19,544 bases of DNA, taken from Pseudomonadota bacterium (GTDB lineage Bacteria; Bdellovibrionota; FAC87; UBA2466). The notes beneath the pieces were generated by a model. That model saw nothing but the letters and a program-made list of their open reading frames with translations. It did no database searches and was not told the DNA's origin. The stretch spans positions 1-19,544 of the forward strand of contig JAYSWN010000193.1 in assembly GCA_043718025.1 (NCBI GenBank), read 5' to 3'. Positions 3,605 to 18,699 of the stretch are shown one piece after another. The number at the start of each line of letters is the position of its first letter. The first letter of the stretch is position 1. A program made the translations under genes and the position numbers.

Positions 3605-4660
3605 CTAGCCAATTGCCGAGTGGTTGCTCAATATTTGCCCGACGGCACGAACGTCATCGTTTGTTGTTCCATGCTTAGCCAAAAGTTTTTCAAACTCACG
3701 ATAAGCTTGGTCCCATTTCTCTTGATGAATGTAGCCCATGATTCGTGACGCTTCGACCATTGGCCATTCTGTCACCCCCAATGGTTGGCAGGAGTATTCA
3801 AAGGCGGCCTCGTACTCATCTTCAGAAAACGATTCAAATGAGTAATTCCTATTTAATGCTTCGCTAGTGAAGGGCGCAACCAACTCAAAAATAACGGAGC
3901 CAGTCCCCTTCACAATGTGTTTGAGCCGAAAGTTTCCGCGAAACCGAAACATCAGTAGATGGATCCAAGGGGTATAAAAATGGTTAAAGTCTTGATGATG
4001 TATCAAAGAAAGATTAGGCACCAACTTTGGGAAAAAAATTTTTACAACAACGTTGGCCAAATTCCACGACTTCATTACGTCGATAAAAAGGTATTCAATA
4101 TCCATTGGGAAGCGGGAAACGAAATTGAGATCGGCAGGGTAGACTTCAATCAGGGCTTTGCGTTGTTTAATGGTTCTTTTGAATAAGCGAAGAAATGAAT
4201 CACCCTCTTTTATTCGTTTCGCCAGCTTTGAGCCCTCGAAGGTGTCAGCCATCCAAGACTCCCACACGAAATCATCAAAAGCATGAATGCGCTTTTTCTT
4301 TTTAGACACGCGCTGGTTCTTTACCAGGCCATTAGCTAACCCTAAGGTCGAACCTCCCAACCAACATCCGAGGTCTACCATTTCTCCTTTTCCCAAATAA
4401 GAATGCTCAGCGAAGCTCTGCAGACTATCGAGTTCGGCCGCCAATAACATGGTCGAAGGCGGGTAAAGGTTGTCTTTTGCTCTGGTAATAATTGAGCGCG
4501 AAAAACGGCGGACACTACGGGGGAAAAAATTTCTGAACAACACTATGCGGCCACACAGTAGCCTTGGGGGCTTGCCACTAATTCCAGAAATGACCCGGCT
4601 TGCTTGCTTGTCGTTAACATAATGGTACCGATTCTCCCGGCGATTACCGCCTATCCTCAT
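3605..4660 (-). CDS. Class I SAM-dependent methyltransferase (TylF/Methyltransf_24-like), probably glycan-modifying
   Basis: SAM-binding motif I VDLGCWLGGST, plus IHAFDDF, YLFIDVMKS and HHQDF. ATG 4660 overlaps the GT2 stop (ATGA), but the first 40-70 aa look non-conserved, so the real start may be downstream. Confidence 0.75.
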   Translation of the reverse strand: MRIGGNRRENRYHYVNDKQASRVISGISGKPPRLLCGRIVLFRNFFPRSVRRFSRSIITRAKDNLYPPSTMLLAAELDSLQSFAEHSYLGKGEMVDLGCWLGGSTLGLANGLVKNQRVSKKKKRIHAFDDFVWESWMADTFEGSKLAKRIKEGDSFLRLFKRTIKQRKALIEVYPADLNFVSRFPMDIEYLFIDVMKSWNLANVVVKIFFPKLVPNLSLIHHQDFNHFYTPWIHLLMFRFRGNFRLKHIVKGTGSVIFELVAPFTSEALNRNYSFESFSEDEYEAAFEYSCQPLGVTEWPMVEASRIMGYIHQEKWDQAYREFEKLLAKHGTTNDDVRAVGQILSNHSAIG

Positions 4661-5424
4661 TTTTCTACGGTATGAAAGTCAGTAAGCTGTCGGGGGAAGC
4701 TAGGCACATGCCCGAAGTAAAGGCCAAGCAACCGCAGCAGGTGGGTAGTACCGTACCTGAGCAGGTTGACGTTGCTGCGATCGGCCTTACCCCAGGTAAT
4801 AGGAAAGTCCACGAGGCGAATGCGTTTATGGCGGGCGGCCAACAGCACCAGCAGAGGCTGATAACTCATGTCAGGAGGGAGCTTCCAGTAGGGGAGACTC
4901 TGAATCGTTTTTAAATTGAATGCAATGTAGGCGCCGATATCACCCAGTTTTTGGCCCACAACTATATTTTGAATCGTCTCAAAAAACCGATTTCCCAGCC
5001 AACGAATCAAAGAGTAATTTCTGGCAAGCGATCTGTCGGCCAGCCGATTTCCCAAAACAAAGTCCACCGACGGATCCGCCCGATCCAAAAAATCATCCAG
5101 CGCGCGGGGGTCGGCCTGCCCGTCACTATGAAGACAAACCAGAAAATCGCCGCCGGCGGAAATCGCCTCTCGTAGCGCGATGATTGTGGAGCCGCCCAGG
5201 CTATAATTTGTTGCGTTGAATAATAATCGAAAACGGAAGTCGGCGCGTTTTTCCAACCATTCCCTTAGCACTTCGCGAGTCCCGTCGGCACTGCCGTTAT
5301 CTATAATTAAAATCTGGTGAAAGCGCTTCAGCGTCGCGGGGGGAATGGCCTCTAGCACCGCTAAGACCCGATCGGCGACATTATAGGTTGGCACAAAGAG
5401 GAAATACCGGGGCGGGTGGCTCAT
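4657..5424 (-). CDS. Glycosyltransferase family 2 (polyprenol-phosphate glycosyltransferase/DPM1-like)
   Basis: FVPTYNV, IIDNGSADGT, NYSLGG, CLHSDGQ (DxD-equivalent), DFVLGNR and R..GN motifs. Confidence 0.9.
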   Translation of the reverse strand: MSHPPRYFLFVPTYNVADRVLAVLEAIPPATLKRFHQILIIDNGSADGTREVLREWLEKRADFRFRLLFNATNYSLGGSTIIALREAISAGGDFLVCLHSDGQADPRALDDFLDRADPSVDFVLGNRLADRSLARNYSLIRWLGNRFFETIQNIVVGQKLGDIGAYIAFNLKTIQSLPYWKLPPDMSYQPLLVLLAARHKRIRLVDFPITWGKADRSNVNLLRYGTTHLLRLLGLYFGHVPSFPRQLTDFHTVEK

Positions 5425-5465
5425 CGCTAGATTCTGCCCAACTTGTGATAAACTTCAAACGCAAA

Positions 5466-7097
5466 ATGCAAATGGAATCGCCTTCAAAAACGAGTACCAT
5501 ATGCATTCTGGCCGCCGGCTCTGGCACCCGCATGGGACGCTATGGGAGCATGACCCACAAAGCGCTCCTCCCCATTGCGGAATCAGCAGCAATTTCTCAC
5601 CTTATAGAAAAATTTCTTGCTCTCATCGGCCCCAAGGCTCGCTTTGTGATCGCCGTCGGTTTTCATGCCACTGACGTGATCGATTACGTTGAACTGGCGC
5701 ATCCCGACATTTTAGTGGAATTCATGCGCGTTGACGATTTTGACGCTCCGGGCGCAGGACCCGGTGCCTCTGTCCTGGCGTGTAAAAAGTTGCTCCGTAC
5801 TCCCTTCTACCTGACGTGCTGCGATGCGCTCTGGACCGAGATCCATATCACGCCTTTTTTATGGAACCGGGATTGGCTTGCGGTGGCGCGGGTAGAAACT
5901 AAAGTTACGGTGGACTACTGCAATGTGCGGATCGCCGGCTCGGAAGTGCTGAGCTTTTACGATAAAGAAAAAGTGGCGGGGAATGAGTTCCGAACTTTTA
6001 CCGGTCTGGCTCACATCGCCCACCCCGCAAGTTTTTTTCATTCGCTCAAAGGCGCTCAACTTCACTCTGCCTCCCTTGAATTGGCCTCCGGCTTTTCGGG
6101 ACTGCTCTCCCCCCACGGCGCCGGATTATTTATCTGTGAGATGACGGGCTGGCAGGACATTGGCACCCTGGAGCGCTATGAAGAGGTAAGGCGGCTATAT
6201 GGCGGCGCTGGTTTTTTAAAGTTCGGAGAGCTTTTCTACCGGGTGAATGATCAGGTTATCAAGTTCTTTGCCGATCCCAGCGTGGTCTCCATGCGGGTAG
6301 CACGCGCCGAAATTCTGGATCCGCTGACTCCGGCGGTACTGCAAGCCCGCCGCCATTTTTTTTCCTATCGCTATCTTCCGGGGCAGACACTTTACGAGGC
6401 CATAAGCCCGGGGCGTCTGGAGAATTTTCTTCATTGGCTGGAGAAAAACTTATGGCATCCGGTAGAGGTTTGCGCTCAGGAAAAACAACAGCGGGGACTG
6501 GAGTTTTATAGAGATAAAACCCTGGGGCGAATGGATTCTTACTTTGAGGACAAAAAGTGCCTCGTTGACGCGCCAATAAAAATACAAATTAAAACGCTTT
6601 TAGCAAAAGTACCCTGGGAACGGCTTTCTCAGGTACGGCCTGTCCTTTTTCATGGGGATCTACAGCTGGATAATATAATTCATCATCCACCGACAGGACA
6701 GTATTCCCTGATCGACTGGCGACAAGACTTCGCCGGTTCCCTTACCTGGGGGGATCTCTACTATGACTGCGCCAAGTTACTATGCAGTATCGAAATCGAT
6801 TTCAGAAGAATTCAACGGGCCGACGGCAGTATCTTTGGGACCGCGTGCCCCATTCCAAACGCAGAAATTTTACGGAACGTGCTAAAGAATTTTTTTTTGA
6901 AAAAGCGGCTCGAGCCCGCCCGAATCGATCTTCTAATGGCGCTTATTTGTCTAAATATGGCGGGTATTCAAACAGCCCCCAGCAATAGAATTCTTTTCGA
7001 AGAGGGGTATCTCAGGCTGCAACGGTGCTTGGAAGCCTCTGCACGGCCCGGAATAAAAAGGGGGCTTTCGGGCGACAATATGGAATCGGTCGAATGA
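5466..7097 (+). CDS. Bifunctional nucleotidyltransferase (NTP_transferase/LicC-like) and APH/choline-kinase-like phosphotransferase
   Basis: The N-terminal part has ILAAGSGTRM..KALLPI, CCDAL and WQDIGT. The C-terminal part has the Brenner motif FHGDLQLDNII, LIDWRQ and GDLYYDCAKL. The start is placed at ATG 5466 (or 5472) because 5388 overlaps the divergent GT2. Confidence 0.85.
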   Translation: MQMESPSKTSTICILAAGSGTRMGRYGSMTHKALLPIAESAAISHLIEKFLALIGPKARFVIAVGFHATDVIDYVELAHPDILVEFMRVDDFDAPGAGPGASVLACKKLLRTPFYLTCCDALWTEIHITPFLWNRDWLAVARVETKVTVDYCNVRIAGSEVLSFYDKEKVAGNEFRTFTGLAHIAHPASFFHSLKGAQLHSASLELASGFSGLLSPHGAGLFICEMTGWQDIGTLERYEEVRRLYGGAGFLKFGELFYRVNDQVIKFFADPSVVSMRVARAEILDPLTPAVLQARRHFFSYRYLPGQTLYEAISPGRLENFLHWLEKNLWHPVEVCAQEKQQRGLEFYRDKTLGRMDSYFEDKKCLVDAPIKIQIKTLLAKVPWERLSQVRPVLFHGDLQLDNIIHHPPTGQYSLIDWRQDFAGSLTWGDLYYDCAKLLCSIEIDFRRIQRADGSIFGTACPIPNAEILRNVLKNFFLKKRLEPARIDLLMALICLNMAGIQTAPSNRILFEEGYLRLQRCLEASARPGIKRGLSGDNMESVE

Positions 7098-8701
7098 GCG
7101 GGCTGGCGAGTTCGCTCAGGTCTCACTGGAATTTGGCGGTCAGTTTTATTCTTGGCCTTTCTTTTTTGGTTTCGACTCCTCAGCTTGCCACCTCTCCCCG
7201 AACCTTTCTCCTGGCCCGGATTCTGGCCGCAGCTCTGATTGGATCTGCTTGCTGGCTTCTGATTTGGGGAGTGGCCTCTGGTCCCCAGGCAATAGAACAG
7301 AGGACGATCCTCCAAAAAAAGTTCCTAAAGGAATGGTTCATACAGGCCTCGTTTGGACTAGTACTCCTAGGAAGCTGGCTTGGCGGACAATGGCCCGGTT
7401 TTCTTAACATCGACACTTTTGTAATTTATAGGGAGCTGAAGTCCCTGCGCCTGCATGAATGGGCGTCCTCGCTCTATTCTCTATATCTGCTGACACTTCA
7501 GCAGCTCAGCAAGAATCCGGGGCTGGTCCCTGCGGTTCAGGTGGTAGTCGCGGCGGTGCTCTCGGGATTTCTGTTTAGCCTTCCCGTGCTCGATGGCAGA
7601 CCGGTGTGGATTTGGCGATTGCTGCTTTTTATTTTCCTCATAAATCCACTCAATGGCGCTCTTAATGTGACGTTGAGCCGCGATATTATTTTTTCGTGGT
7701 GCCATATGGGCTGCGCCTTGTTTGTTCCGTGTTACCGGCTTTTTTACCCCGACAAGGCGAACCCATCACTTTTGCTGATTGGGGCTTACAGCCTGGCCGT
7801 GGTCTGCACCGCAAAGTTACGAATGGAAACGGTTCCCACCTTAATTGTGCTACCGTTTTTGTTGGCGGGAATTTGCCTTTGGCGGCGGAAAGCCGTTGCT
7901 ATTTTCTGTGCGTTCACCGCCTTTTTCGGCGTATTGATTTTCGAAACCATGCCCAGCTGGACCAGAACTTTTTCTCCTGCGCTGTCCTACTCCGCCACCT
8001 CATTTATTAATCCCTTAAGTTACCTCCTTCACCATTCCTACAAGACGGATGACCGCGAAGGGGATGCCCAAATCATCGATCGCTTTCTTGATTTTTCACT
8101 GATGGCGAAAATGCCTGACCCCTACGAAATCACGGCGTTTCATAAAGGCTTGCGTAAGCCGGTAAAAAAAGAAAATTATTTAGCGTTACGCAATTTGTTT
8201 CTAAAGATGATCTGGCGCAATCCGGGGCTTTTTATTGAGAATCGCTGGGTCATGTTTCTGGCATTGAATGGCTATGGCAGGCACACGTTCTACTTTGGCA
8301 ACGATCTTGAAGCACGGCTGCCGGGTTCAGCCGAGCTAAGGAGTTGGTTCCCCTCAATCAAAAAAGCACCGTGGTCGGAGCCGCTTCATGCCCTACAGTT
8401 GAGGCTATTGCGCCCTTTCTTCCGCGGAGAGATTGTGCCCTTTCCCACTCTCTTTGTTACCAACACTATTGCCTTTCTGGTACTCCTGCTGAGCTTGCTT
8501 TTATTTCCGTGGGCGCCGGCAACCGCGGGAGCGGCGCTGTTCGTTTTTTTGCGGCTGGTCATTGTATTTCTAACCGCGCCGGCTCCGCATTTCACTTATG
8601 TCTACGGGGTCTATCTCTTTGGCGTTTTTGCCCCCGTATTGCTCTGGATGGAGTTGCAAAAAAACGGCTCGAATAAATTGGTAGGGCAGTCAGTACCCTA
8701 G
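7094..8701 (+). CDS. Polytopic membrane protein, GT-C-like glycosyltransferase candidate
   Basis: About 12 or more hydrophobic segments. The first loop WPGFLNIDT...HEW resembles the PG...D-S/T loop of GT-C/DUF6020-like proteins, there is an RDIIFS motif, and a large soluble loop lies before the C-terminal TMs. ATG 7094 overlaps the upstream TGA (ATGA), indicating coupling. Confidence 0.65.
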   Translation: MSGLASSLRSHWNLAVSFILGLSFLVSTPQLATSPRTFLLARILAAALIGSACWLLIWGVASGPQAIEQRTILQKKFLKEWFIQASFGLVLLGSWLGGQWPGFLNIDTFVIYRELKSLRLHEWASSLYSLYLLTLQQLSKNPGLVPAVQVVVAAVLSGFLFSLPVLDGRPVWIWRLLLFIFLINPLNGALNVTLSRDIIFSWCHMGCALFVPCYRLFYPDKANPSLLLIGAYSLAVVCTAKLRMETVPTLIVLPFLLAGICLWRRKAVAIFCAFTAFFGVLIFETMPSWTRTFSPALSYSATSFINPLSYLLHHSYKTDDREGDAQIIDRFLDFSLMAKMPDPYEITAFHKGLRKPVKKENYLALRNLFLKMIWRNPGLFIENRWVMFLALNGYGRHTFYFGNDLEARLPGSAELRSWFPSIKKAPWSEPLHALQLRLLRPFFRGEIVPFPTLFVTNTIAFLVLLLSLLLFPWAPATAGAALFVFLRLVIVFLTAPAPHFTYVYGVYLFGVFAPVLLWMELQKNGSNKLVGQSVP

Positions 8702-9171
8702 TTAATAATCACGGGTTTTGCTCCGGTTACTCGATAACGGGGGTCTACCGGATCGATGAATAGCTTGTGCGAGTGGCCATCGACCTCGGTGGTCTGCAAC
8801 GTCACCCGCTTTAATTGTTTTAATACCGCAAAATGTTCGGGGGTAACGGTAAATTGGTGATCTCGGCCACCGTGACCATGCCAAAAAGTAAAGGGAACCG
8901 GTTTGTTTTCAATGATGGCGGCCACCCGAATGATCCCCGTTTTGGGCCCTAGGCCGCCGTCAAAATAGAGGGCCATCGCGTTGGTGTCATAAAGCGTGAT
9001 CGCTTTTCGTATGATCTCTTCGGGCGGTTCGAAACTAAAAAGGGAACTGGCTTTCGGGGCGTTAGAAAATTGTCGCCCGCAGGCAGCCAGCCCGCCAACC
9101 ATAACTCCCATCACGCTGGCTAACGCGGCCCGCAGAAAATCTCTTCGATCTAGATTTACGCAAGTTTTCAA
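8698..9171 (-). CDS. Tat-exported His-rich lipoprotein of unknown function (putative metal binding)
   Basis: SD AAGGAG lies 8 nt before TTG at 9171. There is a twin-arginine motif DRRDFL, a hydrophobic stretch, lipobox LAAC, and C-terminal FWHGHGGRDH...EH...GHSH. Confidence 0.8.
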   Translation of the reverse strand: MKTCVNLDRRDFLRAALASVMGVMVGGLAACGRQFSNAPKASSLFSFEPPEEIIRKAITLYDTNAMALYFDGGLGPKTGIIRVAAIIENKPVPFTFWHGHGGRDHQFTVTPEHFAVLKQLKRVTLQTTEVDGHSHKLFIDPVDPRYRVTGAKPVIIN

Positions 9172-9390
9172 GCAGAAGACTCCTTTTTTAAGGTCTAGTC
9201 CAAGCTTAAAACGGGGCGCGCCAGCGCAGGGACTATCGAACAATAAATGCTAACAGGCGCTAATAAGGTAGCCGTGGAAGCTAGTGGCATTAAATCCGCC
9301 GCCAATGCTAGAAGAGTGGTTTAGCGAATAAAGGCGAGGCTAGTCAGAGCCTTCTTAAATACGTTTTTTAAAGTTTAAAGGATGAATGCG

Positions 9391-14795: not shown

Positions 14796-14985
14796 CCCTT
14801 GCGACGTTTTCTCTTCCGATAACGAACACGATGTCACGCGTTAGCTCTGCGCGTTATTTTTAAACTCACCCGGTTGCTGAATTCAGATTTTGGTGGGAAA
14901 CTATTCTCCATCGGTTTGGCGCATATTTTTTGTTTCAGGCCTTTGTTTTATCAACTTAATTGTCACTCATCGAAAGGACATAACC

Positions 14986-15270
14986 ATGAACCAATGGTCA
15001 AAAGCACTCGTAGGTGCGGTAGTAGCAGGCTTTCTCACTTCACAAACTTTAAAGGCCGATGAAACAGCTCCCGCGGCGACGGACCCGTCGGCAGCCCCGG
15101 CCACGACTGAAGCCGCTCCAGCGGCTGATGCAACGCATAAAAAAGCCAAAAAAGGCAAAGGCAAGAAAAAGCACGGCAAAGACGGCTGTGGCGGAAAATC
15201 CGGATGCAAAGGTGCCGATAAATCCAGCTGCAAAGGTGCAGACAAGTCTAGCTGCAAAGCCAAAGAATAA
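14986..15270 (+). CDS. Secreted Cys-motif precursor peptide for the adjacent MNIO (bufferin/oxazolin-like RiPP precursor), 94 aa
   Basis: SD AAAGGA precedes ATG 14986. The product has a Sec-type signal (…TSQTLKA/DE), an Ala/Pro/Thr acidic linker, a Lys-rich block and four Cys motifs (KDGCGG, KSGCKG, KSSCKG, KSSCKA). It lies directly upstream of DUF692 and DUF2063. Confidence 0.88.
   Translation: MNQWSKALVGAVVAGFLTSQTLKADETAPAATDPSAAPATTEAAPAADATHKKAKKGKGKKKHGKDGCGGKSGCKGADKSSCKGADKSSCKAKE
15205..15259 (+). repeat. 24-bp coding tandem repeat (2.3 copies) encoding CKGADKSS
   Basis: tgcaaaggtgccgataaatccagc / tgcaaaggtgcagacaagtctagc / tgcaaag; all 4 differences between the two full copies are synonymous third-position changes. 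Confidence 0.92.
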
Positions 15271-15284
15271 CTGATTGGATGTTT

Positions 15285-15319
15285 GGCCCCGAGGGCGTTT
15301 CGCCTTTGGGGCCTTTTTT
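15285..15319 (+). terminator. Intrinsic terminator-like hairpin between the precursor and MNIO genes
   Basis: GGCCCCGAGGGCG-TTT-CGCCTTTGGGGCC forms a 13-bp stem with 2 G:U pairs. It is followed by TTTTTT and then immediately ATG 15320. Confidence 0.85.
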
Positions 15320-16198
15320 ATGAGACTTCCTGATTTCCCCCACCTTGGTTTTGGAGTCGGCTTTCGCCACCATTACTCCGATTTTTTTTCGCAAAACCGA
15401 CCCGCCAAAATTGATTGGGTGGAAGCCATCACCGAAAATTATCTCCCTTGGGAAGACGGCACCTGGGTACGCCCCATCGAAATGCTCGAAAAGGTTCGGG
15501 CGCACACTCCGGTCGCGCTTCACGGCGTCTCACTTTCAATTGGTTCCGAAGAGCCTTTAAACGAGAGCTACTTATGGCGTTGGAAAGAGCTAGTTGACCG
15601 GATTGAGCCGGCTTGGATTTCTGACCACCTCTGCTGGACAGGTAGCAGTGCGCACAACGCCCACGACTTACTCCCTCTGCCATATACCACCGAGACCCTA
15701 GCTCTTCTCGTCGACAAAGTGACGCGCATACAAGATTTTATGGGCCGCAGGCTCATGCTCGAAAATGTCTCCAGTTACGTAGAATTCAAGCACGCTGAGT
15801 ACACCGAGTGGGATTTTCTTGCTGCCTTGGCCAGCAAAGCCGACTGCGGTCTGCTACTCGATGTGAACAACATATACGTAAGCTCGATTAATCACGGCTT
15901 TGACCCGATGACCTATTTGCGGGCAATTCCCAAAAAACGAGTGGGGCAGATCCACCTTGCCGGTCATCGAAACAAAGGCACCTACTGCATCGACACGCAC
16001 GACGAACCGGTGTGTGATAACGTTTGGAATCTTTACCGTTGGGCGTGGCAACATTTTGGTCCAGTTAGTACGATGATCGAACGCGATGATCGTTATCCTG
16101 AGTGGAACGAGCTTGCCCAAGAGGTAGACCGGGCAAGAAACTTAGCCAAAGAACCGAATGCCAAACTTAAACCTAAAGACACTTCAGCAACGCTTTAG
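15320..16198 (+). CDS. DUF692 multinuclear non-heme iron-dependent oxidative enzyme (MNIO; BufB/HvfB-like maturase)
   Basis: GFGVGFR, WVEAITENY, LHGVSLSIG, WISDHLCW, DLLPLPY, LENVSSY, LLDVNNIY, QIHLAGH, IDTHD and MIERDD are the conserved DUF692 iron-ligand motifs. The start is placed at 15320 because the track start 15275 runs through the hairpin. Confidence 0.96.
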   Translation: MRLPDFPHLGFGVGFRHHYSDFFSQNRPAKIDWVEAITENYLPWEDGTWVRPIEMLEKVRAHTPVALHGVSLSIGSEEPLNESYLWRWKELVDRIEPAWISDHLCWTGSSAHNAHDLLPLPYTTETLALLVDKVTRIQDFMGRRLMLENVSSYVEFKHAEYTEWDFLAALASKADCGLLLDVNNIYVSSINHGFDPMTYLRAIPKKRVGQIHLAGHRNKGTYCIDTHDEPVCDNVWNLYRWAWQHFGPVSTMIERDDRYPEWNELAQEVDRARNLAKEPNAKLKPKDTSATL

Positions 16199-16934
16199 AA
16201 AAGCGGTAACTGAACAAGGCGCCAGGCAGAGCCCAGCTTGGCTTGGGGTCAAAGACACGGCCCCTATCCCATACCAACGCCGCCTCGATATTTACCAATT
16301 CGCTTACTTCGCCCGCATCCACGAATCCCTAGCCGATGACTTCGAAGAGCTCAAGAAATTGGTCGGAGACAAGAACTTTGAAAAAATTTGCCGCCTCTAT
16401 CTAACAAAATACCCTTCTCGTTACGCCAGCCTTTCGGAACTTGGACGCCGGTTACCGCAATTCTTATTGGAAGAAAGGCCTTGGGCGGCCAAACCCTATT
16501 TAAGCGCGTTAGCCGCTTTCGAATGGGAAGTTTTTTTGGCCACCGTAACCGCCAACCCAAAACTGCACAGCCCCAGTGGGGAGAGCGCCACGAATGCTGC
16601 CCAATTTTTTTTTCTCCATCCCGCCGTTCGCCTCTTTGAATCGATTTGGGAAGTAGATCGAATAAAAAAAAGGGAAAAGAAAATCCCCAAAGGGAAAAGC
16701 AAATTATTCTGGGTTATTCATCGACAAGGGCACGACATTTACTGGTACCGCATCTCAGCCGTTCAACATGAGGTGCTCACTCTGTTGTTTAAGGGGCACG
16801 CAACCGACAGCCTGGTAGCGACCTTCGAAAAGCGGAAAGTCTCTCAACGCCAAGCTTCGGTCTGGTTCAAACTCTGGGCAGAAAACAACATTATTACGGG
16901 GTTCCAGAATGCGCAGACTGCATCGTCAACTTAG
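16158..16934 (+). CDS. DUF2063-containing MNIO partner protein (BufC/HvfC-like)
   Basis: LKTLQQRF...RRLDIYQFAYFARIHESLADDF...LVG...F...YP S...L...G..LPQFL...LAAFEW...FLHPAVRL is the DUF2063 pattern. It overlaps the MNIO gene by 41 bp. Confidence 0.9.
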   Translation: MPNLNLKTLQQRFRKAVTEQGARQSPAWLGVKDTAPIPYQRRLDIYQFAYFARIHESLADDFEELKKLVGDKNFEKICRLYLTKYPSRYASLSELGRRLPQFLLEERPWAAKPYLSALAAFEWEVFLATVTANPKLHSPSGESATNAAQFFFLHPAVRLFESIWEVDRIKKREKKIPKGKSKLFWVIHRQGHDIYWYRISAVQHEVLTLLFKGHATDSLVATFEKRKVSQRQASVWFKLWAENNIITGFQNAQTASST

Positions 16935-18699
16935 TTTTATCGCACTACTGCCGTTCCTGGTTCTGTCTTCTGCGGCAAATGCAAAATTGAATTGGCAAGG
17001 CTGGTCAAACGAGGCCTTCGCAAAGGCAAAAGCCGAAAACAAGTTGGTGATCTTAGATCTTGAAGCCATTTGGTGTCACTGGTGCCACGTAATGGAGGAA
17101 AAGACTTACTCCGATTCAGCAATCGTTAAAATCCTCGAAGAAAAATTTGTGCTCTTACGCGTCGATCAAGATTCACGGCCAGACCTTTCTCAGCGCTATT
17201 CTGATTATGGTTGGCCAGCCACCATTATTTTTGATGGCGCGGGCCGCGAGCTCGCGAAACGGGCCGGTTTCATTTCGCCAGAAAAATTTCTTGCTCTCAT
17301 CAAAAAGTTGGTGGCAAACCCTATCCCCGAAGAGATCGGAATTGACGAGAAACCCGAAGTTCCAAAAAGCCCTTTCTTATCCGAAGAGCTTAAAAAGAAG
17401 CTAAAAGACCTGCACCTTAAACAATACGATAGCAAGAATGGCGGCTGGGGTCGTATTCACAAGTTTATTTTTGGTCCGAGCGAAGAGCTGGCGTTAAGTG
17501 ATTCGCGAAAAGGTGACAAGAGAAGCGCTAAGATGATGGTCACCACCTTAGCCCAGGCCAAAAAGATCATCGACCCCGTGTGGGGAGGTGCCTACCAGTA
17601 CTCGGTAGAAGACTGGGAAGAGCCTCACTTCGAAAAAATTGCGCTCAGCCAACTAAAGTTTCTGCAGACTTACGCGCTAGCCGCACGACAAAGTAAAAAC
17701 CCCGACTACCTTCAGGCCGCAAACAACATCAAAAAATTTCTAGTCGGTTTCTTGTTAGCCCCCGAGAAAGCCTTCTACACCAGCATGGACGCCGATTTGG
17801 TTAAGGGCACCCACAGCGAAGAGTATTTTAAGCTAGATGATAAATCACGCCGAGCTAAAGGGGTGCCCGCAATCGATAGAAACCTCTACGCGCGCGAAAA
17901 TGGCTGGTACACGCAAGGGCTGCTGTCACTCTACTGCGCCAGCGGTAGTGAGGAAGACCTGAGCCTCGCTAAAAATGCCGCGTCATGGGCGATAAAAAAT
18001 CGCGGGCGAAAAGACGGGGGGTTCAACCATGCCACTACGGATGCCGCTGGACCATACCTGGGCGATAGCCTGGAAATGGGGGCCGCTCTATTAGCTCTGT
18101 ACGAAAGCACGGGCGATAGACAATGGCTCAGTAATTCGCGGGCGGCCGCCACCTTTATTTCTAAAATGTTTTCGGTCGAAGTGGACGGCAAAGGATTCGG
18201 TTTTAAAACCACGGCCTCACTTTTATTACCTAACCAAAAGCCAGACTATGATCGCACGGAAAACGTGCGCCTAGTCCGGTTTACGAATCGACTGTTTCAT
18301 TACACCGGTGATGAGCTTTTTAAAAAGATGGCCGAACAGGGAATGCGTTACCTCGTGCAACCCAAACTGGCCTCCGAGCTTCCCACCGCCGGCACTTTAT
18401 TAGCCGACGACGAACTGATTCGGCCACCGTTACACATTACAATCGTAGGTGCGAAAACTGATCCCAATGCCAAGGAGCTTTTTTCCGCGGCCCTGGCCTA
18501 CCCAGCCACCTTTAGGCGAATTGAGTGGTGGGATAAAAGCGAAGGAGAACTTCCGCGCAAAGACGTGAACTATCCCACTCTGTCTAAGGCGGCGCTGTTC
18601 GTATGTACAGAAGGGCGCTGCTCACTGCCGATGTTTGACCCATCGACAGTGGCAGCTAAGATTAATGCGTTGTTAAAGGTGAATGCCGCCGAACTTTAA
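16909..18699 (+). CDS. Secreted DUF255 thioredoxin-domain protein (YyaL/SPATA20-like, C-terminal alpha/alpha barrel)
   Basis: Signal peptide ending SAANA, followed by NWQGWSNEAFAKAKAENKLVIL, WCHWCHVME (CxxC), VDQDSRPDL, GWPAT, DPVWGG..QYS..DW..PHFEK, FYTSMDAD and a C-terminal VCTEGRCSLP. It overlaps the upstream gene by 26 bp. Confidence 0.9.
   Translation: MRRLHRQLSFIALLPFLVLSSAANAKLNWQGWSNEAFAKAKAENKLVILDLEAIWCHWCHVMEEKTYSDSAIVKILEEKFVLLRVDQDSRPDLSQRYSDYGWPATIIFDGAGRELAKRAGFISPEKFLALIKKLVANPIPEEIGIDEKPEVPKSPFLSEELKKKLKDLHLKQYDSKNGGWGRIHKFIFGPSEELALSDSRKGDKRSAKMMVTTLAQAKKIIDPVWGGAYQYSVEDWEEPHFEKIALSQLKFLQTYALAARQSKNPDYLQAANNIKKFLVGFLLAPEKAFYTSMDADLVKGTHSEEYFKLDDKSRRAKGVPAIDRNLYARENGWYTQGLLSLYCASGSEEDLSLAKNAASWAIKNRGRKDGGFNHATTDAAGPYLGDSLEMGAALLALYESTGDRQWLSNSRAAATFISKMFSVEVDGKGFGFKTTASLLLPNQKPDYDRTENVRLVRFTNRLFHYTGDELFKKMAEQGMRYLVQPKLASELPTAGTLLADDELIRPPLHITIVGAKTDPNAKELFSAALAYPATFRRIEWWDKSEGELPRKDVNYPTLSKAALFVCTEGRCSLPMFDPSTVAAKINALLKVNAAEL

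Follow-up and report, generated by a model that had tools for sequence, protein, structure and literature searches.

The contig JAYSWN010000193.1 of a Bdellovibrionota bacterium, analysed here over its whole length of 19,544 nucleotides (the window), carries genes for a short precursor peptide, an MNIO (DUF692) enzyme, a DUF2063 partner protein and a predicted exported DUF255 protein of the YyaL/SPATA20 family. The DUF255 gene recurs beside captophorin clusters of various lineages as an optional companion, and its link to them is probably a functional one. Together, the other three genes very probably yield a copper-binding peptide that is exported and belongs to a known class. As judged from its sequence, the DUF255 protein may serve as a periplasmic reductase for the thiooxazole thiols of the peptide, a reading to which we give a probability of roughly 0.4.

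DUF255 genes recur beside captophorin clusters

For the linkage samples, DUF255 alone was used as the query, and a locus was counted as linked when an MNIO gene lay within 4 kb; many of the flanks were short. MNIO genes were found in this range at 36 of 132 DUF255 loci, against a chance level of about 0.0026 per locus. In metagenomes, both MNIO and DUF2063 lay in the flank at 18 of 80 DUF255 loci, and four suggestive loci (L138, L152, L179 and L191) were left out of the linked count. In the order of a Hyphomicrobiaceae record, DUF255 was matched in 13 of 401 genomes and 5 of 14 regions were linked (a 0.7-kb fragment was left out), and in the order of a Nevskia record it was matched in 39 of 151 genomes with 13 of 38 regions linked (the seed genome was left out). 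The linked DUF255 and MNIO genes were 450–3710 bp apart, with the MNIO gene upstream, downstream or convergent, the last in 4 loci. Those linked loci whose sequences were full (38) fell into 14 clusters at 60% identity, and linkage changed state 13 times on the tree, with partial loci counted as linked. Precursors of the Buf2, reduced Buf2 and EGKCG types were found at linked loci alike, so the presence of DUF255 does not mark a peptide subfamily.

Among the genome's own relatives, DUF255 touches DUF2063 in six genomes (G000, G001, G002, G003, G007 and G017), and in G006 it points towards YceI and a Buf2 gene that stands alone. A YceI gene directly 5' of a Buf2 precursor gene, adjoining DUF255, was observed in two genomes (L213:8083-8976 and L292:4380-5370). 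Within one order, MNIO was present in 35 of 38 DUF255-bearing genomes versus 66 of 112 others, and among the own relatives in 10 of 11 versus 22 of 50; in both comparisons the genomes are kin and not independent. Exported DUF255 was found in none of the 201 genomes of G063's phylum and, among 301 genomes of the own phylum, in none outside the own order. One plasmid match was obtained (Bradyrhizobium NZ_CP100605.1), with no MNIO annotated within 10 kb. The DUF255 and MNIO distances correlated (rho 0.64, distant pairs), and this was not used as support because shared ancestry explains it. Complex prediction for the cognate DUF255-Buf2 pair from L195, run without the modified rings, gave a score of 0.00 and favours neither side.

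As a control, canonical-type YyaL gave 49 matches in 48 of 61 relatives, one of which (G010:C540) adjoined an MNIO gene in a by-hand comparison of positions. This copy, of 770 aa, has a hydrophobic extension at its N-terminus and lies inside a sigma-NrsF-Buf1 cluster. It belongs to a second exported DUF255 branch of 760–825 aa, distant from the first, which stood in Buf1/Buf2 clusters at 3 of 9 loci (2 genomes; G010:C540 and two in G080); two other loci had DsbD/HMA/MerT or MsrAB neighbours, and the remaining four showed nothing of this kind. The second-branch loci with such neighbours (L210:3761-6073, L291, L292, L293 and L294) lie in sigma/anti-sigma bufferin clusters or beside SCO/PCuAC, MsrAB, or DsbD with HMA and MerT, and the DUF2282 model matched the precursors of L210 and L291. 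Independent acquisition of export by the two branches was not supported, since in the unrooted tree, which held only 6 cytoplasmic rows, both can form one side.

Other genes also recur at the linked loci. DoxX accompanied DUF255 at 21 of 36, and the idea that DUF255 replaces DoxX was therefore rejected. A protein of about 330 aa that looks exported and has an HExxH-like motif but no Pfam match, a candidate peptide-processing protease, was seen at L177:10276-11262 and 16 other linked loci (17/36), and it adjoined DUF255 without MNIO in L138, L155 and L163. An extended alphaproteobacterial cluster (L177:3498-11262; also L170, L171, L184, L189, L195 and L223-L225) combined CcdA, DoxX, DUF255, one or two Buf2 genes, MNIO, DUF2063, a creatininase-family protein and a peptidase-like gene.

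The three-gene core encodes a reduced Buf2-type peptide and its maturases

The precursor gene (14986-15270, + strand) was called as an open reading frame (ORF) of 94 aa with Cys at positions 68, 74, 82 and 90. The protein consists of a predicted Sec signal (residues ~1–24), an Ala/Thr/Pro linker, a Lys-rich stretch and a four-Cys core (DGCGGKSGCKGADKSSCKGADKSSCKAKE). Its N-terminus has a hydrophobicity of 2.51 and an AlphaFold2 (AF2) helix at residues 3–20; thus, a Cys-containing protein of less than 200 aa with a predicted Sec signal precedes the MNIO gene. The curated precursor models BufA1, BufA2 and HvfA did not match it, nor did the DUF2282 (Buf1) model of Pfam. With the BufA2 model (NF050166) it was unmatched at an E-value of 1, and 8 of 8 Buf2-like controls matched, three of them above the cut-off. 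The four Cys fall short of the six or twelve that define Buf2. However, a hidden Markov model (HMM) that we built from 70 Buf2 precursors gave the mature precursor 14.4 bits, versus a mean of −4.1 (standard deviation 2.6, maximum 8.9) for 500 composition-keeping shuffles. In this alignment the precursor Cys fall on Buf2 Cys II–V, Cys I is replaced and the chain stops before Cys VI. The disulfide of Buf2 likely joins Cys I and VI, and the central four Cys carry the −4.03 Da modifications (PMC11626156). From this register, and with Cys I and VI missing, the product is predicted to be unstructured with four thiooxazoles. The AF2 model had a predicted local distance difference test score (pLDDT) of 53 and no secondary structure in the mature part, from a shallow alignment of 14 sequences. 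The precursor thus appears to be a reduced Buf2 without the structural disulfide pair, of the Cys-Lys captophorin type.

The homologue search with the precursor returned 4 close kin only, and similar low-complexity precursors of the KDxCxGK kind occur in relatives within the family. Those of the same genus resemble the KDGCK-repeat entries already catalogued in Data set S2 of PMC13097082. A new precursor class was rejected on this ground, and the uncharacterised peptide subfamily suggested in the earlier note, of which DUF255 would have been a mark, gives way to a type within the catalogued Cys-Lys captophorin group.

The MNIO gene (15320-16198, +; 292 aa) encodes a BufB2-like enzyme that scored 351.4 with NF050167 (MNIO_BufB; cut-off 310), which places it in the bufferin maturase class, and it stayed below the own cut-offs of the HvfB, MbnB, ChrH and ApyH models (HvfB, 244 versus 360). 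It matched PDB 3BWW at an E-value of 6e-43, and its best named match was a protein of a Bdellovibrionota metagenome-assembled genome, with 56% identity. Around its 80 nearest genome loci, the precursor was Buf2-type in 70, of another type in 6 and not found in 4, as scored by regular expressions. Cys-Lys MNIOs have Asp where FonB has Phe250 (Gadgil et al. 2026, PMC13097082). Here, the sequence ERDD at residues 254–257, located by motif and not by FonB alignment, has Asp after the catalytic Asp, and three CK[G/A] motifs in the precursor agree with Cys-Lys specificity. Among 35 linked MNIOs, 29 had D at this site (a Cys-Lys precursor was found for 28) and 6 had F (an EGxCG precursor for 5). EGNCG-repeat precursors instead of EGKCG were observed beside ERDF-type MNIOs in L251, L253 and L257, and L028, L030 and L051 (Rickettsiella-type) had precursors with 9–10 Cys and a lipoprotein-like signal, not Buf2 by the regular expressions.

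The DUF2063 protein (16158-16934, +; 258 aa; partner protein, PME type 1) follows the MNIO and has the usual length of about 250–260 aa. It scored 66.4 bits with PF09836 (cut-off 27.2) and 63.8 with the HvfC model, below the cut-off of 142. In a comparison of its C-terminal part with RiPP (peptide made on the ribosome and modified after translation) recognition elements, made by sequence only, 3DEE was unmatched and a PadR-like match was obtained at E 0.45; no PDB sequence matched under E 0.4.

Three known systems are close to this core. With Caulobacter vibrioides buf2ABC (bufferin 2; BUF_6/12Cys; Leprevost et al. 2024, PMC11626156), it shares the precursor-MNIO-DUF2063 order, the Sec-type signal, the lack of DoxX, a BufB-class MNIO and Cys-Lys motifs on the four central Cys; it differs in having four Cys instead of six (the Cys I–VI pair is missing), a predicted unstructured product, no BufA2 model match and DUF255 as a fourth gene. 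With the Cys-Lys captophorins of PMC13097082, it has in common the MNIO-PME1 pair, the specificity-site Asp and several CK motifs. In that paper as available, no such low-complexity CK precursor is characterised, and DUF255 does not appear in the main text. Like oxazolin HvfABC/fontiphorin (EGKCG, Lys-Cys group), it has an unstructured, repeat-type exported precursor without a structural disulfide, and some EGKCG clusters also carry DUF255 (L243, L247 and L264). Unlike them, its precursor lacks the EGKCG motif and so is not an oxazolin, and its MNIO is under the HvfB cut-off with Asp, not Phe.

The bufferin-type exported metal-binding RiPP locus described in the earlier note is therefore upheld by the MNIO class, the Buf2-like Cys register and the precursors at 70 of the 80 nearest MNIO loci. 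Its family assignments also held (PF05114, 345.5 bits; PF09836, as above; PF03190, 91.9 bits; all above cut-off), and it was right to flag DUF255, a recurrent companion of such clusters. It had treated the lack of DoxX and sigma/anti-sigma genes, with DUF255 carried instead, as distinctive. This lack is ordinary for Buf2 clusters, because the founding buf2ABC has no DoxX gene (and Buf1 is unaffected by deletion of doxX; PMC11626156) and sigma genes accompany Buf1, not Buf2, clusters (PMC12452194); DUF255 and DoxX also occur together, as described above.

The DUF255 protein has the YyaL/SPATA20 fold and a predicted signal peptide

The DUF255 gene (16909-18699, +) encodes 596 aa, of which the PF03190 match covers residues 19–100 only. 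The predicted fold (pLDDT 94.6) consists of a thioredoxin domain, an (alpha/alpha)6 barrel and a C-terminal alpha/beta domain, as is characteristic of the family. The thioredoxin domain has W-C56-H-W-C59-H and a GWP loop, and the C-terminal domain has C566-x4-C571. The model matched 7TKV with a Z score of 38.5 (root-mean-square deviation 2.8, 502 residues aligned), followed by AGE-family epimerases and GH76 barrels with Z scores of 24–26. WCHWCH was invariant in 77 aligned DUF255 rows, the C-x4-C pair was conserved, and so was a barrel pocket, in which H240, E242, K243, D294, D296, H374 and D386 are invariant or near-invariant.

Thus, the protein resembles YyaL/SPATA20 (SSP411; 7TKV; domain 3IRA) in its three domains, CHWCH, GWP, barrel pocket and C-x4-C. 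It differs from them in its identity of only about 20–28%, a length shorter by about 80 aa, the predicted signal peptide and the captophorin linkage, and its subfamily forms a long-branch clade of its own apart from canonical YyaL. A hydrophobic N-terminus was found in 126 of 129 subfamily members versus 0 of 6 canonical ones.

Locus layout, regulatory elements and neighbouring genes

ORF coordinates agree with the description in the earlier note of four co-oriented genes, the last three overlapping by 41 and 26 bp, and Pfam matches agree with unrelated flanks, prfC on one side and DUF2090 (PF09863) on the other. The DUF255 gene and the convergent DUF2090 gene share 4 bp where their stops overlap. 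Neither DoxX nor sigma/anti-sigma genes were matched among the 18 window ORFs scanned. Other contigs of the same genome (4.14 Mb, 92% complete, MNIO single-copy) have four DoxX and two DsbD/CcdA-type matches, and no second precursor of the types covered by the regular expressions was found in the 4.14 Mb. The four-gene order was unbroken in the same-genus genome G001 and interrupted by contig ends in G002 and G003. The whole stretch was spanned unbroken by one contig of run X1, which may itself be the source of this DNA; the small-share runs X3 and X5 yielded short pieces of it only. No RNA dataset containing the locus was listed.

The 49-bp gap between the precursor and MNIO genes is filled by a GC-rich hairpin of 13 pairs and a T-run (15285-15319, +; −27 kcal/mol), directly 5' of the MNIO ATG. 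The hairpin is also present in two same-genus genomes, and comparable ones occur in L212, L217, L090, L098, L146 and L195; L211 has none and L141 a weak one only. It is likely a partial terminator or mRNA stabiliser that would give an excess of precursor. At 15314-15322 the U-tract leads into the MNIO start, and no Shine-Dalgarno sequence is evident; the same holds for L217. Upstream, the motif TGGGAAACTA (14894-14903, +; ~90 nt before the precursor start) is shared by all 3 genus members having the region, at positions −90 to −97, and the same form was unmatched in the other 20 of 23 loci; it may be a promoter element. Its 10 copies in the 4.1-Mb genome show no clear regulon, and a sigma-70 promoter scan gave 3 matches versus 2.8 expected, which is chance level.

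Elsewhere in the window, an ORF of 181 aa (8698-9243, −) has a weak Tat-like signal match, His-rich motifs (WHGHGG and GHSH) and no family, and is possibly an exported metal-binding protein. The region 3605-8701, with a glycosyltransferase, a methyltransferase-like ORF, an NTP-transferase/kinase fusion and a membrane protein without a family match, looks like a small surface-modification cluster.

Discussion

By analogy with BufBC, FonBC and HvfBC, the MNIO and DUF2063 proteins would oxidise each Cys to a 5-thiooxazole in the cytoplasm (−4 Da), and Sec would export the modified peptide to the periplasm. The predicted product, residues 25–94 of 6829.6 Da minus 16 Da, would be unstructured with no structural disulfide and would likely act as a periplasmic copper buffer. 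Copper promotes the oxidation of thiols, and the periplasm is an oxidising compartment. There, the CHWC site of the DUF255 protein may reduce labile disulfides between thiooxazole thiols and so keep or restore the metal-binding form; its electrons may come from CcdA/DsbD, here encoded elsewhere in the genome, and its barrel may hold the Lys-rich peptide. The thiooxazole thiols of bufferin are needed for copper binding, and a labile S-S form exists between modified residues (PMC11626156). An exported CxxC protein, with CcdA in 12 and DoxX in 21 of the 36 linked loci, fits a reductase preserving the binding form. Disulfide folding is not the shared job, because this precursor and the EGKCG precursors have no structural disulfide. 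Somewhat more tentative is the reading that exported YyaL/SPATA20 proteins are dedicated periplasmic maturation/recycling enzymes for thiooxazole metallophores, in which the barrel would bind the peptide and the thioredoxin domain would act on the heteroaromatic thiols.

Several observations weigh against the thiol reductase. At 96 of 132 DUF255 loci no MNIO was found in the available flank, and no partner recurred at the unlinked loci among 93 of 124 flanking ORFs scanned. DUF255 was present at only 1 of the 80 nearest MNIO loci, in agreement with the very low proportions of extra conserved genes reported by Antoine et al. (PMC12452194), and it is dispensable because most captophorin producers are without the gene. 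The CcdA/DsbD genes at linked loci all belong to one DUF255 cluster and lineage. Most conserved residues of the DUF255 protein, including all putative catalytic ones, are common to cytoplasmic canonical YyaL, which suggests a general family function and not a peptide-specific one. The thioredoxin domain is one quarter of the protein, and a simple reductase role leaves the conserved barrel pocket unexplained. Export is predicted from a crude hydrophobicity test, not SignalP, and the redox direction (reductase, oxidase or isomerase) cannot be read from the sequence.

The many solitary copies and the residues common to the housekeeping form would suit an enzyme of general envelope repair under metal or oxidative stress, co-regulated with the peptide genes and not acting on the peptide, as would the convergent orientation in 4 loci and the second branch beside MsrAB, DsbD and MerT. 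This explanation is somewhat less probable than the reductase, as no other stress gene recurs beside unlinked copies, most unlinked copies in the tested order have MNIO elsewhere in the genome (35/38 overall) and the genes overlap at this locus. Less probable again is a tailoring enzyme, whose barrel would add a second modification (C-S, glycosyl or epimerase-type) with the thioredoxin domain presenting or activating the thiols. The Z scores of 24–26 with AGE-family epimerases and GH76/GH88, the conserved pocket residues and the HExxH peptidase-like gene, which hints at more processing, point in this direction, but identity to AGE/GH enzymes is 9–17%, the same pocket is present in DUF255 forms unlinked to peptides, and characterised captophorins, though none from a DUF255 locus, show thiooxazoles and disulfides only.

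A slightly smaller chance is given to a metal-binding protein that unloads copper from the peptide, through CHWCH or the C-terminal Cys pair, for reuse or disposal. Fully loaded captophorins aggregate (PMC13097082), the Cys/His cluster is invariant, and the copper chaperones SCO and PCuAC lie beside one second-branch locus (L291); on the other hand, the CxxC and GWP loop are those of a canonical thioredoxin and no copper transporter recurs among DUF255 neighbours. Finally, DUF255 is unlinked in four genomes of the same order (G019, G034, G037 and G011), as an accidental neighbour might be, but such an accident is very improbable and largely refuted by 36 linked loci of 132 with ~0.3% expected, in 14 clusters and several gene orders.

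The peptide, for its part, is an expected addition to a class already described, and we did not find the exported DUF255 companion in print. DUF255 was mentioned in none of the papers listed, and no paper was found that names both DUF255 and DUF692 (the co-occurrence Table S1 of PMC13097082 may list the family), and the word thioredoxin is absent from the bufferin and captophorin papers found. No DUF255 or thioredoxin term occurs in the xlsx supplements of PMC12452194 and PMC13097082, which list IDs, loci and precursors; the PDF supplements of the two papers may name the family. Although structures of YyaL/SPATA20 are solved, the literature listings and abstract starts gave no biochemical function for it.

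As a RiPP class, captophorins rank among the largest, and the DUF255 link may bear on their fate after export, in redox state, turnover and copper release. This locus offers a clean test, since no structural disulfide in its peptide would blur the outcome, and from the recurrent gene link the YyaL/SPATA20 family gains a candidate substrate that can be assayed directly. A dedicated maturation/recycling role, if true, would be an unrecognised step in the life of captophorins and would supply a first substrate to a family whose conservation extends from bacteria to human sperm.

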